Part shown: positions 130 through 44,857 of the stretch, piece by piece
How positions within the stretch are numbered: the stretch's first letter is position 1
Layout of the letters: each line of letters starts with the position of its first letter
Source: Rozella allomycis CSF55
Taxonomy: Eukaryota
Direction: 5' to 3'
NCBI GenBank assembly: GCA_000442015.1
Contig: KE560862.1
Location: 1 to 48,551 of the forward strand
DNA length: 48,551 nucleotides
Translations under genes and position numbers: made by a program
The notes under the pieces: model-generated
What the model saw: only the letters and a program-made list of their open reading frames with translations
Told to the model about the DNA's origin: nothing
Database searches by the model: none

Positions 130-2387
130 ATGAACATTTTATTTCTCTGTTTGATATTTACATTTTCGGCATTAATTCAGAGTTTATCAATAAAATCTCC
201 ACTAGCTGTTTTAAGAGGCATACCATTTTCGGTGTCTTTCAGTGTGGCACCACTTGTAGGCGGTAACGAAAAATATGAAATTTAAAAATAGACGATCGCC
301 CATGGAAGGATAATGTTGGATACTATACGGTGTATGATGGTGAATTTGTAATCTCTTCAAACAAGTTTTCACCCTATGATGAGGAAATCAAGGTCAAGGA
401 TTTGCTTGTTGAACATTTTGGGGAGCACGAGTTCAAGGTTGTCGTGTCTGGTAGTGAGAATGGGGAGGCTATATTGAGTGATACGTTTGAAGTGTATTGT
501 ATTCCAGGGATTCTGAGTATCTTGCCGTCGATTATAACAGTTGCGTTAGCGATGTGGCTCAAACAGAATATATTGGCATTGTTTATAGGAATATGTATTG
601 GATCTACTTTTATATATAGGTATAATCCAATAACTGGAATGTAAGGAATATATTTGTGTGAGATAGAATGCGTGCGGTTGATACTATAGTTGTTGAAGCA
701 TTAGCCGATAGTGGACATGCTAGTGTGATATATTTTTGTTTGTTGATTGGTGGAATGATAGCTGTTATTGGTAAAGGAGGAGGTGCCAAGGGAATGGCGC
801 AAGCAGTGACCAAGTTTGCCAAGACGAGGAGAAGTGCGCAGTTGGTTACATTCTTTGTTGGGATATTTATATTTTTTGATGATTATGCGTCGTGTTTGAT
901 TACAGGATCTACTATGAGAGATATTGGCGCGCAATTGAAAATCAGCAGGGAAAAGTTATCATTTATTGTTGATACGTGTGCAGCGACTATATCGTGTTTG
1001 TTTATTGTGTCGTCGTGGGTTGGGGTTGAAGTTACACAGATTGAAGATGGCTTTAAAGAAGCTGGAATTGAAGAGAACGCGTATTCATCATTTCTGAATG
1101 CTATTCCATACAAATTTTATCCGATTCTAGTGTTAATATTTACATTTATAACGATTATAACTGGGAAAGATTTTGGGCCCATGTACAGAGCAGAGAGAAG
1201 GGCTGTTGTTTATGGAAAGGTTAGTAGTGATCATGCGAAGCCAGTTGTGGATGTAGATGATGAAACAATGTCACCCAAGAGTGATAAACCACAGCGATGG
1301 TACAATGCAGTGATTCCATTTCTTGTTATAATATTTGTTGTGTTTGGAGGGATGGTTTTAGAAGGATATTTCCATGTTCAAGACAGACTTGGTGGGTCTA
1401 TTGAAAGAGAAATGATTTTAGCTACAACGCAAGGACAGAAAATGAGGCTATTGAGTGAACAAGGAAGTCTTTCATTTGATATTCAAACTTATTTATCTAA
1501 GAGTGATTCATTCCATGCTTTGATTTGGGGATCATTAGCTGGTTCATTTGTCGCTATTTTTCTTGTTGTTGCTCAAAGAATATTAACGCTATCAGAGGCT
1601 ATGGATGCATGGTTGGCTGGATGCAAATCTATGATCTTTGCTATTCTAATTCTAGCCCATGCATGGGGACTTGGCAACATTTCTAATCAATTACAAACAT
1701 CTGATTTTATGACATTTGCATTGAAGGGGAATATTCCAGCTGGCTTATTACCAACAATTGTATTTATTCTTGGAGCAGGGGTATCATTTGCAACAGGTAG
1801 TGCATGGGGCACAATGTCAATTCTCTTTCCACTTGTCATTCCTTTGGTTCATGATCTAGCCAAAGGTGATTTGAATCTACTGTACGCTTCTATGGCTGCC
1901 ATTCTCAGTGGCTCTGTGTGGGGTAATCACACGTCCCCAATAGCTGATAGCTGCATTATGTCTTCAATGTCTACTGGTAATCATTTCTTTATCAATTAAA
2001 AAAGGTTGTGATCATGAAGATCACGTTAAAAGTCAGGCCCTGTATGCTATCATTGCAGGAATCATTTCAATTCTGTTTTGTACAATTCCAGTAGGCTTTG
2101 GCTTGTATCCCTTCTGGGCTGCCCTTCTTATCTCTATTGCTGTAATGATAATCATCATTATGCTGTTTGGACGCAAGCCTGAAGATTCTTCACCAACCCT
2201 GGCATCTAAATTGCTTGGACGAAGACGAAATAAAATGGATTTTATTATTGAAAAAGAAGAAATTGATCAAGTTCAAGATGTTTCTAGTGAAGATCAAGAT
2301 GACAGCTATGCCAGCTGTTCTCAAATACAAGAACCAATCTACAAAGAGCATTATTCTTCCATAGCCAGTCCTTACAATAAAGTTTAA
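130..2387 (+). CDS. Na+/H+ antiporter NhaC-family membrane protein with N-terminal signal peptide; introns 263-291, 641-666, 1977-2004
   Basis: Motifs IFFDDY, ISREKLSFIVD, SFATGSAWGTM and GNHTSPIADS; splicing restores STGCDHEDHVKSQ, typical of bacterial NhaC-like proteins; hydrophobic N-terminus MNILFLCLIFTFSALIQS. Confidence 0.85.
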
Positions 2388-2511
2388 CTTACATTTATTT
2401 ATTTTATTTTATTTGCATACGTTGAGTGATCACTTAATTACTTCATTGTCATAACCCTTCTTTTTGTTTTTTTTCTGAAATTTCTTTTTGGCGCCATTTT
2501 TGATTCTGCAA

Positions 2512-42652: not shown

Positions 42653-42690
42653 TTTCAGGGAATTCCGTAAAGCCAGGGTCAAGGAAGAAG

Positions 42691-44857
42691 ATGTCGGCAC
42701 CACCAAGAGTTATAATGAAGGGTAACTAGAAGCCATTTTTTGTTATAGGGGGAGTATGGAAAAATACCGAAGATGAAATTTTAAAGGTTTCTGTGATGAA
42801 ATATGGCAAGAACCAGTGGGCACGTATTTCGTCGCTTCTGGTCCGTAAAACGCCAAAGCAATGTAAAGCGAGATGGTAAGTAGTGTATTTAATTGTTATA
42901 GGTATGAATGGCTGGACCCTAGTATCAAGAAAACAGAGTGGACAAGGGAGGAAGAGGAAAAGCTGTTGCATTTGGCTAAAATTATGCCTTGCCAGTGGCG
43001 AACTATTGCACCTCTTGTAGGAAGAACACCTGCGCAATGTTTGGAGCACTATGAAAGACTTTTGGACCAGGCGCAGGGTATAACGGAGCCCATTGAAAAC
43101 GACCCAAGAAAGTTGAAGCCTGGTGAGATTGATCCTGAGCCTGAAACGAAACCAGCTAGACCTGATCCTATTGATATGGATGAAGATGAAAAGGAAATGT
43201 TGTCTGAGGCTAGAGCCAGAGTAGCCAATACCCAGGGAAAGAAGGCGAAGCGCAAGGCCAGAGAAAGACAATTGGAAGAAGCTAGACGTTTATCGATGAT
43301 TCAAAAGAAGAGAGAAATGAGGGCAGCTGGAATATTGTAAGAATTTATGGCTGTGTAAATGTAGTGTTAAAAGTGGGATTAGAAAAAGAAGAAGAGATGT
43401 TGATTACAATGCTGAAATTCCATTTCAAACTCCACAAGTTCCAGGGTTTTATGATACCACTGAAGAAAAATTGAAGGAGAATGATCCACAATTTAAGATG
43501 ATAGCAGATCCAGTCAAGGCAATTCTTGGAGAAAGAAGAGATTTGAAGGAGAAAAAGAAGAGAGAAGTAGACGCAAAGAGACTCAAGGAAAGACATGAAA
43601 AGGGAGATATTTTTGATATAAAGACGGAGACAGAAGAAGATCAGATCCAAAAGAGAAGAAAGTTGATGTTGCCAGCGCCTCAAGTGACTGATGAAGAATT
43701 GGAACAAGTAATAAAAAGAAAATTTAATAAATTAGATTGTAAAGTTGGGTATGCAAGGAGAAACATTAAGAACTGTTGTTGATGAAACAATGACCCCGGC
43801 TAGAGGGTTGTTGAATGAATCAAGCTCAATAGTGGCTACTCCTTTTAGAACACCAAGAATACCAACAACAGAAGACCATATTAGAAAAGAGGCAAATGCA
43901 ATTTTAGCTTTAACGAGAACTGAAACGCCATTGAAGGGAGGAGAGAATACACCCCTGCATGTAGAAATATCAGCCACTCCACGTGCACCAACCCACGCCA
44001 CTCCTGTTAGATGGACAGTTCAACATAGCCAAGCGTTCCAACAACCCGGTGACAAAAGGATGGCCACTCCATCTATTGCTGCAACGCCACTTAGGAATGA
44101 TGATGTAATTGAAAAACAAAAATTGCGTCAATTGTTTGCTCAGCTGCCTAAACCTAAAAATGATTTTGAATTGGTGCTAGATGAAGAAGATGAAGTTGAA
44201 GAAGAAAAGATGGAAAAAGTCCAGATTAAAGACAAGGGTGAAGAAACAATAAAGATGTTGGAGAGAATTAAGACTTCTGTCGCTAAAAATAATTTACCAA
44301 TTCCAGAAGAATTTATCTTTTCAGAATCAAATGACGCTGTTGATAATTTGATTAAAAATGAAATGCTTCAATTGATCAGACAAGATGTCGAAGATTTACA
44401 AATTGAAGATGACATTCCAAACTATCTCTTGTTGAAAGCACAAGATTTGTTAGATAAAGAAATGGAATTGTTATCTTCCATTAAAATTGATATACCACAA
44501 AACGAATCACGTTATTTTAACCGTGAGGATCGCCCTTTAAATGAACTACAAGAAGAGTTTCAAAAGGTTCAAAAATTAATCTATCAACAAGTTTCTCATT
44601 GTCAACAGCTAGAAAAACAATTAAAAACATCTCTTCCTATTCACAATAATTCTCAATCTTTTGATTCTGTAGTAAACCAGTCAAGCCAATGTAGAATTGA
44701 TTACTCTTGCTTTTCACTATTGGCAAACAACGAAAAGATTGCAATTCCTTTAAGAATTAATCATTTACAAAATTACCTTTCCTTTATTCAGAAAAGAGAG
44801 TTGGAACTGCAAAATACTTATGTAGATCTTTATTCTCAACTACAAACGGTTAAATAA
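42691..44857 (+). CDS. CEF1: Myb-domain splicing factor Cef1/CDC5L; introns 42722-42748, 42876-42901, 43337-43364, 43708-43735
   Basis: [56 protein letters not shown]. Confidence 0.95.

Follow-up and report, generated by a model that had tools for sequence, protein, structure and literature searches.

We analyzed the introns of a whole contig of Rozella allomycis CSF55 (KE560862.1), which at 48,551 base pairs (bp) is the window of this study. The introns are probably ordinary spliceosomal GT..AG introns of the U2 type whose length has been reduced to a near-minimal, box-shaped range of 26–29 nucleotides (nt) and in which the distance to the 5' splice site would determine where the branch adenine (A) lies. 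Among the 76 curated introns, 73 were 26–29 nt long, 75 started with GTA, and 58 carried an A at position +23, counted from the first G of the intron. R. allomycis is a member of the Cryptomycota and a parasite of Allomyces, and it represents a sister lineage to the Microsporidia. The window has a G+C content of 34% and is read with the standard code, under which long open reading frames (ORFs) of up to 1088 codons stay open. The translation of the exon at 12591–13511 was 100% identical to a 608-amino-acid NCBI protein, "WD40 repeat-like protein [Rozella allomycis CSF55]".

Intron length and the adenine at +23

Introns were called with a Viterbi gene-finder that was trained for codon usage on the long ORFs of the window itself and whose sole requirement was GT..AG. 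With a flat length prior of 15–80 nt, 37 introns were called and 23 of these were 26–29 nt long. With a flat prior of 18–45 nt, the corresponding numbers were 52 and 39; each length within 26–29 nt was represented by 7–13 introns, and there was one intron each at 25 and 30 nt. Most of the length outliers in the flat-prior runs held an inner GTA..AG of 26–30 nt. The trained gene-finder called 99 introns (83 of 26–29 nt; 94 starting with GTA). Curation by retention tests and inspection kept 75 of these, re-placed one (5747–5773), and dropped 23, which gave the set of 76. Calls were dropped because they formed compensating pairs, were in frame and optional, merged genes, lay inside a retrotransposon, or started with GTT, GTC, or GTG. 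Eleven curated gene models each formed one uninterrupted open frame, and a few low-scoring genes were left out of the models.

The curated lengths were 26 nt (17 introns), 27 nt (17), 28 nt (22), 29 nt (17), 30 nt (2), and 32 nt (1), and none was 25 nt or shorter. An earlier reading of the same DNA, made by a model from the letters and a list of ORFs (the sequence-only reading), had placed about 86 introns of 25–32 nt, about 81 of them at 26–29 nt. Its count was about right. As a chance control, the first AG from +26 on fell at +26 to +29 in 18.9% of 1009 other GTA sites, compared with 73/76 for the real introns. Lengths divisible by three (27 or 30 nt) were found in 19/76 introns, 17 of which contained an in-frame stop; stop-less calls of such lengths were retained only with homology support (2 kept, 4 dropped), a selection that could bias their share either way.

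The single donor other than GTA was GTG at 2552, exactly as the sequence-only reading had it. That reading also described positions +4 to +6 as free. This description was appropriate for +5 and +6, which were mixed, but not for +4, where A was found in 51/76 introns and G in none. The intron interiors consisted of 40% A, 39% T, 11% C, and 11% G, and no pyrimidine tract was found in the interiors of the 76 introns, in agreement with the earlier description. The introns thus show a modal length below 30 nt with a narrow spread, and signals cut to GTa and AG, which are the marks of ultra-short introns. GT..AG termini were found at 76 of 78 placed introns, the other two, which were forced by homology, ending in TG and in TT or GG; for the curated 76 these termini are partly by construction, since the gene-finder demanded them.

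When the introns were aligned at their 5' ends, the bases at +23 other than A were C (2), G (4), and T (12), and A was found in 21–27 of 76 introns in the neighboring columns (binomial p = 5e-11 for +23 against a background of 39%). A less filtered set gave A at +23 in 60/82 introns. Divided by length, A occupied +23 in 16/17 introns of 26 nt, 9/17 of 27 nt, 20/22 of 28 nt, 11/17 of 29 nt, and 2/2 of 30 nt. Decoy GTA..AG stretches of the same geometry had A at +23 in 76/191 cases (40%; Fisher p = 7.5e-8), and AT-rich decoys in 20/56. Furthermore, T was found at +21 in 42/76 introns (p = 0.003), and TNA with its A at +23 occurred 31 times, compared with 2–15 times at other offsets. YTNAY, TRAY, and YTRAY likewise peaked with A at +23, at 11, 10, and 7 occurrences. 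CTRAY with A at +23 was found in 1/76 introns. The sequence-only reading was therefore right that a CTRAY branch site is missing, but it overlooked the A at +23, a signal anchored to the 5' end. When the introns were aligned at their 3' ends, the signal was smeared; the best 3'-anchored column was −4 (A in 48/76), and A was found at −6 in 42/76.

We infer that the A at +23 is the branch point. It is quite improbable that this A is instead the contact of another factor or a by-product of A-richness, with the true branch points scattered among upstream A's. The A's at −4 and −6 and the high A content of the interiors fit such a view, and compared with yeast, 3–6 nt is a short distance between branch point and acceptor. 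Outside the 26-nt class, in which +23 and −4 coincide, A was nevertheless found at +23 in 42/59 introns and at −4 in 32/59. The A of UnA and yUnAy motifs falls most often at +23, where the sole yeast-like TACTAAT (in 2552–2580) also has its branch A. Moreover, short spacings do occur: in the available part of PMC9505925, the branch A of Stentor lies 5 nt from the 3' G.

Acceptor choice and junctions without a 3' AG

The exact junctions were compared with public proteins and homology profiles. The NCBI protein P0001 mapped letter-for-letter to 11931–13949 with seven GTA..AG introns of 28, 29, 28, 26, 29, 26, and 29 nt. The introns of the NCBI protein P0121 (DDX55/Spb4-like) were 27, 27, 27, 28, 65, 26, and 30 nt, six of which were the curated ones. 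Together, the two proteins fit 13 curated introns exactly, and tiny introns are thus already present in public Rozella gene models. Against a NOL10 profile of 80 homologues, the annotated isoform scored 0.7–61.9 bits above each of the 15 alternatives with another in-frame donor or acceptor, and use of the bypassed in-frame AGs changed the score by −5.9 (+22), −7.4 (+20), and −1.3 bits (+17). With the DDX55 homologue profile, all nine alternatives were lower by 2.2–59.4 bits. Pfam coordinates were contiguous over seven junctions (two in Dus, four in Kinesin, and one in CAP_GLY). The Dus profile was contiguous at 6474–6501 only with the 28-nt intron, the 19-nt choice adding 3 residues, and read-through of 2732–2758 placed a 9-residue insertion in the CAP_GLY profile. 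In the UDPGP, Pyr_redox_2, SAS-6_N, and AAR2 genes the profile order was kept, with joins inexact by 2–13 positions. The nearer AGs that the sequence-only reading had described as skipped were borne out: the TAG at 19 nt in 6474–6501 by the Dus profile, the three AGs in 12271–12299 and the CAG and AAG in 13655–13680 by P0001, and the three in 39747–39774 by the frame, which each of them would break (Table 1).

At least one internal AG was present in 37/76 introns, and the 1570 interior positions contained 62 AGs (0.039 per position). AGs ending at +19 to +25 numbered 3, 6, 2, 5, 2, 5, and 2, which amounts to 25 in 22 introns where approximately 21 were expected. These results indicate that AGs are not depleted, and hence not avoided, right up to the acceptor; on the basis of sequence and homology, nearer AGs are indeed ignored. 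Of the 25, 19 would cause a frameshift or a stop if used. The remaining six are in frame and open, and homology rejects three of them (6474, 12052, and 12565). The rule "first AG with its G at +26 or later" gave the acceptor in 76/76 introns, including the 18 introns without an A at +23, whereas thresholds of +25 and +24 gave 74 and 69. The acceptor G lies 3 nt (16 introns), 4 nt (9), 5 nt (20), 6 nt (11), or 7 nt (2) beyond the A at +23. AGs at or before +25 are upstream of this A, part of it, or at most 2 nt from it, so that they would be unusable rather than selected against.

These observations can be put together as follows. GUA would define the 5' end, with A favored at +4. The branch A would sit 22 nt after the first G (at +23, sometimes at +24) in a weak U-n-A context, its position being set by the distance to the 5' splice site and neither by a motif nor by the distance to the 3' end. 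Ligation would then take place at the first AG from +26 on, at least 3 nt past the branch A. The acceptors are thus accounted for by a branch-like A together with the nearest AG 3 nt or more beyond it, and the ruler seems to span the distance between 5' splice site and branch point. The sequence-only reading had proposed distance-defined acceptors. Distance alone does predict every acceptor, but the ruler seen runs to the branch-like A, and measuring to the acceptor itself is not shown; the account that reading had set against its own, a conserved branch point followed by the first AG, largely holds. The spacing is presumably a steric property of the spliceosome, and the length distribution, which is cut off on both sides, suggests hard limits beyond a mere lower bound. 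The modified spliceosome inferred in the sequence-only reading is hypothetical. No small nuclear RNA (snRNA) was found within the window. Two splicing-factor genes are present, namely CDC5/Cef1 (Myb repeats and Myb_Cef; 42691–44857, +) and AAR2 (AAR2_1st and the AAR2 C-terminal region; 26469–27581, −); both are apparently intact and look ordinary.

Standard branch recognition followed by the first reachable AG would need no special ruler if the lengths were an evolutionary pile-up caused by deletion bias or compaction of a parasite genome. AGs near the branch point are bypassed in yeast and human as well. Other compact parasites, the myxobolids and Dicyema, have converged on 22–27 nt as far as the available sources describe them. 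In the available part of PMC8042348, the gene density of Rozella is the highest among the fungi compared, and the lowest fungal median intron, in a set that includes Rozella, is 29 bp, the species being unnamed in the text. We consider this explanation somewhat unlikely. A pile-up would leave a tail, whereas the counts fall off on both sides of 26–29 nt, and an A that is fixed from the 5' end with almost no motif (YTNAY in 11/76 introns, CTRAY in 1/76) makes sequence-based branch recognition alone hard to argue.

Several points count against placement of the branch A by 5' spacing. The 27-nt class is divided, with A at +23 in 9/17 introns and at +24 in 12/17. Eighteen of the 76 introns have no A at +23, although 12 of these have one at +22 or +24. 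A weaker 3'-anchored component exists, as −4 is also enriched in A. In-frame nearer AGs that homology does not exclude are found at +25 in the intron at 6205, at +20 in that at 39240, and at +23 in that at 38025, and two longer alternatives for the last intron of the alkaline phosphatase gene (36516–36542) score 0.4 and 0.1 bits higher. The upper side of the acceptor rule has been sampled over approximately 67 positions between +26 and the acceptor, in which approximately 2.6 AGs were expected and none was seen (P about 0.07). The trained gene-finder favored 26–29 nt, and support for the sharp length edges therefore comes mainly from the runs with a flat prior. A single contig with its 76 introns was sampled, and all junctions are based on open frames, homology, and two public annotations. 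No RNA run that contains the stretch was found. A metatranscriptome run compared with 5600–25599 (80% likeness) yielded 38 short pieces, of which 33 were less than 90% alike, and no intron-sized joint.

Two conserved genes appear to require an intron of the usual length but with a 3' end other than AG. In the first, the DDX55/Spb4-like gene, the public P0121 model removes a 65-nt GT..AG intron (35643–35707) and with it 13 residues that include the start of helicase motif VI. Removal of only 35643–35668 (26 nt, GTA..TG, A at +23) raised the homologue-profile score from 614.3 to 672.2 bits, a gain of 57.9 bits. In seven DEAD-box helicases of solved structure, the segments that match the two flanking exons then adjoin each other, with exactly one split codon in between; these include DDX18 (324–351 then 353–391) and yeast Spb4. 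In the alkaline phosphatase gene (−), the donor at 37424 coincides with an in-frame TAA, and the next 33 nt contain no AG in frame. The public alkaline phosphatase P0241, from another assembly (an 18,397-bp contig), has an 84-nt GT..AG intron at 37341–37424 that deletes a conserved segment. The scores were 638.4 bits for a 27-nt intron (ending TT), 637.7 for 30 nt (ending GG), 583.5 for 84 nt, and 572.8 for P0241, so that removal of 27 or 30 nt (37398 or 37395 to 37424) gains approximately 55 bits over the 84-nt intron. Removals of 12–33 nt lay within 4.5 bits of each other, a range in which the exact 3' end may fall anywhere. P0241 also starts at a different ATG from the membrane-anchored model favored here, and it reads VEP where the window encodes VDQ, adjoining the intron at 37765–37793.

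Both junctions are presumably spliced; their lack of AG may be genuine, with acceptors at the usual distance, or it may stem from errors in the assembly. Nine single Ns occur in the contig (9301, 29960, 36573, 40976, 44894, 45013, 45593, 47812, and 48101). At 40976 the N is a superfluous, spurious base; without it, a tandem LRR repeat gene (40334–42062, −) that otherwise looks like two ORFs regains its frame. Gene-finders limited to GT..AG give wrong proteins at such places, with motif VI lost from a DEAD-box helicase and a conserved segment lost from an alkaline phosphatase.

These two junctions bear on a true acceptor ruler, in which an altered second step would ligate at a set +26 to +30 from the 5' splice site with AG preferred but not required. 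The normal-length removals that both genes need are what such a ruler predicts, and the distance rule holds also where +23 is not an A. However, the other 76 of 78 junctions end in AG, one substitution per gene would restore AG in an assembly in which errors exist, the phosphatase 3' end is ambiguous, and the A at +23 accounts more simply for the AG-ending introns. We regard an acceptor ruler as unlikely, and its strong form, with AG optional, rests on the two non-AG junctions only. A combined scheme also seems rather unlikely, in which the distance to the 5' splice site would determine where both steps occur (branching at +23, ligation at +26 to +30), the 3' AG would be a mere preference, UG and GG (or UU) would act as acceptors in conserved genes, and public models would systematically mis-call such introns as longer GT..AG introns. 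If true, it would mean a relaxed second step, for example through loss or change of Slu7, Prp18, or U2AF-type 3' recognition, in the intron-rich sister lineage of the Microsporidia.

Placed introns, rejected calls, and neighboring genes

The placed introns are listed in Table 1.

Table 1. Introns placed in the window, with strand, gene, presence of an A at +23, and the basis of each placement (bits are profile scores relative to the listed intron).
Position	Strand	Intron	Gene	A at +23	Basis and remarks
263–291	+	29-nt GTA..AG	Na+/H+ antiporter-family	yes	ORF-restoring, complete model
641–666	+	26-nt GTA..AG	Na+/H+ antiporter-family	yes	ORF-restoring, complete model
1977–2004	+	28-nt GTA..AG	Na+/H+ antiporter-family	yes	ORF-restoring, complete model
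2552–2580	+	29-nt GTG..AG	CAP-Gly coiled-coil	yes	only GTG donor; last A of TACTAAT at +23; ORF-restoring, complete model
2732–2758	+	27-nt GTA..AG	CAP-Gly	yes	in frame without stop; CAP_GLY contiguous only if removed
5541–5567	+	27-nt GTA..AG	CAP-Gly	yes	ORF-restoring, complete model
5747–5773	+	27-nt GTA..AG	dihydrouridine synthase		hand-placed; ORF-restoring, complete model
5829–5856	+	28-nt GTA..AG	dihydrouridine synthase	yes	ORF-restoring
5924–5951	+	28-nt GTA..AG	dihydrouridine synthase	yes	ORF-restoring
6205–6232	+	28-nt GTA..AG	dihydrouridine synthase	yes	ORF-restoring; in-frame AG at +25 also possible
6351–6379	+	29-nt GTA..AG	dihydrouridine synthase		Pfam Dus contiguous, 178 then 179
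6474–6501	+	28-nt GTA..AG	dihydrouridine synthase	yes	skips TAG at +19; Pfam Dus contiguous, 209 then 210
6676–6702	+	27-nt GTA..AG	dihydrouridine synthase		ORF-restoring
7786–7811	−	26-nt GTA..AG	NDH2-type dehydrogenase	yes	ORF-restoring, complete model; domain order kept
8109–8137	−	29-nt GTA..AG	NDH2-type dehydrogenase	yes	ORF-restoring; domain order kept
8680–8706	−	27-nt GTA..AG	NDH2-type dehydrogenase	yes	ORF-restoring; domain order kept
8864–8891	−	28-nt GTA..AG	NDH2-type dehydrogenase		ORF-restoring
11085–11110	−	26-nt GTA..AG	CCCH zinc-finger/DFRP	yes	ORF-restoring, complete model
11378–11403	−	26-nt GTA..AG	CCCH zinc-finger/DFRP	yes	ORF-restoring
11446–11473	−	28-nt GTA..AG	CCCH zinc-finger/DFRP	yes	ORF-restoring
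11583–11611	−	29-nt GTA..AG	CCCH zinc-finger/DFRP	yes	ORF-restoring
12052–12079	+	28-nt GTA..AG	NOL10/ENP2	yes	skips in-frame AG at +22 (−5.9 bits); in P0001
12271–12299	+	29-nt GTA..AG	NOL10/ENP2		skips AGs at +11, +20, +23; in P0001; best isoform
12402–12429	+	28-nt GTA..AG	NOL10/ENP2	yes	in P0001
12565–12590	+	26-nt GTA..AG	NOL10/ENP2	yes	skips in-frame AG at +20 (−7.4 bits); in P0001
13512–13540	+	29-nt GTA..AG	NOL10/ENP2	yes	in P0001; best isoform
13655–13680	+	26-nt GTA..AG	NOL10/ENP2	yes	skips AGs at +17 (−1.3 bits), +22; in P0001
13816–13844	+	29-nt GTA..AG	NOL10/ENP2	yes	in P0001
14592–14621	+	30-nt GTA..AG	UDPGP-family	yes	ORF-restoring, complete model; profile order kept
14781–14809	+	29-nt GTA..AG	UDPGP-family	yes	ORF-restoring; profile order kept, gap of 4 positions
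15245–15272	+	28-nt GTA..AG	UDPGP-family	yes	ORF-restoring
15333–15360	+	28-nt GTA..AG	UDPGP-family		ORF-restoring
20279–20305	−	27-nt GTA..AG	ankyrin-repeat	yes	ORF-restoring
20947–20973	+	27-nt GTA..AG	SAS-6	yes	skips AG at +25 (would stop after 2 codons); ORF-restoring
21159–21184	+	26-nt GTA..AG	SAS-6	yes	ORF-restoring; SAS-6_N on both sides, off by about 2 residues
21612–21637	+	26-nt GTA..AG	SAS-6	yes	ORF-restoring; alternative 29-nt GTT at 21646–21674
22308–22336	+	29-nt GTA..AG	SAS-6	yes	ORF-restoring
22841–22866	+	26-nt GTA..AG	kinesin	yes	ORF-restoring, complete model
23033–23058	+	26-nt GTA..AG	kinesin	yes	Pfam Kinesin contiguous, 75 then 76 then 77
23320–23347	+	28-nt GTA..AG	kinesin	yes	Pfam Kinesin off by one residue
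23475–23503	+	29-nt GTA..AG	kinesin		Pfam Kinesin contiguous, 200 then 201 then 202
23659–23686	+	28-nt GTA..AG	kinesin	yes	Pfam Kinesin contiguous across this and next intron
23748–23774	+	27-nt GTA..AG	kinesin		Pfam Kinesin contiguous across this and previous intron
23870–23897	+	28-nt GTA..AG	kinesin	yes	ORF-restoring
24347–24373	+	27-nt GTA..AG	kinesin		ORF-restoring
24572–24599	+	28-nt GTA..AG	kinesin	yes	ORF-restoring
24823–24848	+	26-nt GTA..AG	kinesin	yes	ORF-restoring
24972–25000	+	29-nt GTA..AG	kinesin	yes	ORF-restoring
27388–27414	−	27-nt GTA..AG	AAR2	yes	ORF-restoring; AAR2_1st 1–44 upstream, 52–133 downstream
27881–27906	+	26-nt GTA..AG	unnamed, 27609–29547	yes	ORF-restoring, complete model
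28142–28169	+	28-nt GTA..AG	unnamed, 27609–29547	yes	ORF-restoring
28335–28363	+	29-nt GTA..AG	unnamed, 27609–29547	yes	ORF-restoring
28572–28600	+	29-nt GTA..AG	unnamed, 27609–29547		ORF-restoring
28720–28746	+	27-nt GTA..AG	unnamed, 27609–29547	yes	ORF-restoring
29027–29054	+	28-nt GTA..AG	unnamed, 27609–29547	yes	ORF-restoring
29328–29353	+	26-nt GTA..AG	unnamed, 27609–29547	yes	ORF-restoring
34589–34615	+	27-nt GTA..AG	DDX55/Spb4-like helicase		in frame without stop; in P0121; retention −8.8 bits
35063–35089	+	27-nt GTA..AG	DDX55/Spb4-like	yes	in P0121
35409–35435	+	27-nt GTA..AG	DDX55/Spb4-like	yes	in P0121; alternatives −26, −59 bits
35515–35542	+	28-nt GTA..AG	DDX55/Spb4-like	yes	in P0121; alternatives −22, −52 bits
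35643–35668	+	26-nt GTA..TG	DDX55/Spb4-like	yes	no 3' AG; +57.9 bits over annotated 65-nt intron
35785–35810	+	26-nt GTA..AG	DDX55/Spb4-like	yes	in P0121; alternative −29 bits
36110–36139	+	30-nt GTA..AG	DDX55/Spb4-like	yes	AG at +23/+24 skipped; in P0121
36516–36542	−	27-nt GTA..AG	alkaline phosphatase		ORF-restoring; 45- and 57-nt alternatives +0.4 and +0.1 bits
36758–36785	−	28-nt GTA..AG	alkaline phosphatase	yes	ORF-restoring; alternatives −14, −20 bits
37202–37233	−	32-nt GTA..AG	alkaline phosphatase		longest of set; ORF-restoring; alternatives −11, −64 bits
37395–37424	−	27- or 30-nt GTA	alkaline phosphatase	yes	no 3' AG (TT at 37398 or GG at 37395); profile scores
37765–37793	−	29-nt GTA..AG	alkaline phosphatase		ORF-restoring; alternatives −50 to −55 bits
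38025–38053	−	29-nt GTA..AG	alkaline phosphatase		ORF-restoring; 23-nt in-frame choice 0.0 bits; P0241: 33 nt from another start
39240–39265	+	26-nt GTA..AG	F-box/LRR		ORF-restoring, complete model; in-frame AG at +20 present
39747–39774	+	28-nt GTA..AG	F-box/LRR	yes	skips AGs at +9, +14, +21 (all frame-breaking); ORF-restoring
39868–39894	+	27-nt GTA..AG	F-box/LRR		ORF-restoring
42451–42479	−	29-nt GTA..AG	unnamed ORF chain (gene itself uncertain)	yes	ORF-restoring only
42549–42574	−	26-nt GTA..AG	unnamed ORF chain (gene itself uncertain)	yes	ORF-restoring only
42722–42748	+	27-nt GTA..AG	CDC5/Cef1		ORF-restoring, complete model
42876–42901	+	26-nt GTA..AG	CDC5/Cef1	yes	ORF-restoring; exon end = Myb repeat 1 profile 41/46
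43337–43364	+	28-nt GTA..AG	CDC5/Cef1	yes	ORF-restoring
43708–43735	+	28-nt GTA..AG	CDC5/Cef1	yes	ORF-restoring

Raw GTA..AG length counts and a simple frame-rescue scan were too noisy and were set aside. A 15–300 nt intron prior fused adjoining genes, and a low intron penalty led to over-calling (100 introns, 36 of them non-GTA). The long calls were rejected individually: 5747–5811 comprises a 27-nt intron and an exon, 25382–25441 and 16670–16717 fuse adjoining genes, 25997–26038 would remove the SDR core of an ORF that is continuous anyway, and 40933–40978 is an artefact of the spurious N. The call at 7555–7579 over-extends an already complete NDH2 C-terminus, and the non-AG call at 494–522 belongs to a spurious pair. 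The compensating pairs 494–540 with 595–619 and 39347–39372 with 39386–39410 were dropped as unneeded, as were the in-frame optional calls at 1882–1908, 24002–24028, 19663–19689, 18611–18637, and 38064–38120. Some of the dropped pairs and optional calls may be genuine introns. The first four of these optional calls are 27-nt stop-less GTA..AG stretches inside exons (1882–1908 and 24002–24028, +; 18611–18637 and 19663–19689, −), for which ORF logic does not decide between intron and coding sequence.

A fragment of a Ty1/copia-type retrotransposon lies at approximately 45716–48486 (−; Pfam RVT_2, 3.4e-27). It lies in the most G+C-rich part of the window (0.40) and has several Ns and broken frames, and the intron calls inside it were discarded. 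A tRNA-Leu gene with the anticodon TAA is located at 9096–9177 (−) between two protein-coding genes and was recognized by both Rfam (58.7 bits) and ARAGORN. The centriole gene with SAS-6_N adjoins the kinesin gene (20836–25425, +), which fits flagellated zoospores. A relative of NOL10 with 37% identity is encoded, seemingly in one uninterrupted stretch, at 10001–11741 of a metagenome contig (L001, 191,837 bp); at this identity it is too distant to be used for comparison.

Comparison with known systems

No account of the length range, the A at +23, or acceptor choice in Rozella was found in a literature search that did not extend to James et al. 2013 or to any supplements. Rozella has approximately 2.5 introns per kb of coding sequence, and fungi reach no extremes of intron length (PMC8476143). 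Two introns in the Rozella S23 gene are approximately 30 nt long and, according to the authors, lack microsporidian motifs (available part of PMC6349667). Very short introns are described in reviews for ciliates, Microsporidia, and dicyemids, and now for myxozoans (PMC13644364).

Rozella combines many introns with a length range only 4 nt wide and almost no sequence signal, and it therefore offers a natural test of the minimal needs of the spliceosome, in particular of what sets the minimal distances from 5' splice site to branch point and from branch point to acceptor. It adjoins the Microsporidia, which lost most introns and parts of the spliceosome, and may thus preserve the condition that preceded this loss. 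In the available part of PMC6349667, Microsporidia such as Encephalitozoon cuniculi, the sister lineage, have introns of 23–50 nt, and Microsporidia keep few introns with extended 5' and branch-point motifs, whereas Rozella has many introns with almost no motif. A microsporidian type of signal is not seen in Rozella, in which conservation at the 5' end is limited to GTA(a) and in which CTRAY and YTNAY are as rare as given above.

The introns of approximately 25 nt in the ciliates Paramecium and Nyctotherus resemble those of Rozella in that nearly all are shorter than 35 nt, start with GTA, and occur at high density (available parts of PMC5014332 and PMC8997360). The two ciliates have reassigned stop codons, whereas Rozella uses the standard code. 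In Paramecium, intron lengths that are multiples of three are under-represented; such a shortage is not evident in Rozella, in which 17/76 introns are 27 nt long, a share that our own selection could have biased either way. The 15–16-nt introns of Stentor coeruleus also start with GUA and have no branch consensus, a fixed branch A, and a spacing of a few nucleotides between branch point and acceptor. Their A is anchored to the 3' end (position 10 of 15 nt, 11 of 16 nt), in contrast to the 5'-anchored A and the varying distance to the acceptor in Rozella (available part of PMC9505925). By the lengths given there, the Rozella introns are approximately 12 nt longer.

In yeast, steric constraints cause nearer AGs to be passed over in favor of the first AG that can be reached, as would be the case in Rozella. 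Yeast introns differ in having a strong branch motif and distances of usually 10–40 nt, compared with mostly 3–6 nt and a seemingly position-defined A in Rozella. Slu7 and Prp18 are reportedly dispensable at very short branch-acceptor distances (Brys and Schwer 1996 and related yeast work).

The introns of the myxobolids and Dicyema japonicum resemble those of Rozella in their short medians (22–27 nt), 5' GTa, 3' AG, and the lack of a polypyrimidine tract (PMC13644364; available parts of PMC6543705 and PMC6736024). In both groups, weakly conserved A's move off the AG as the intron lengthens, which amounts to 5' anchoring as in Rozella (PMC13644364, 2026), and the genomes are those of compact parasites. 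Rozella seems to differ in the single column at +23 (A in 76%), the box-shaped range of 26–29 nt, and two junctions apparently without AG. Furthermore, the myxobolids and Dicyema are animals, whereas Rozella is a fungus-like lineage sister to the Microsporidia.

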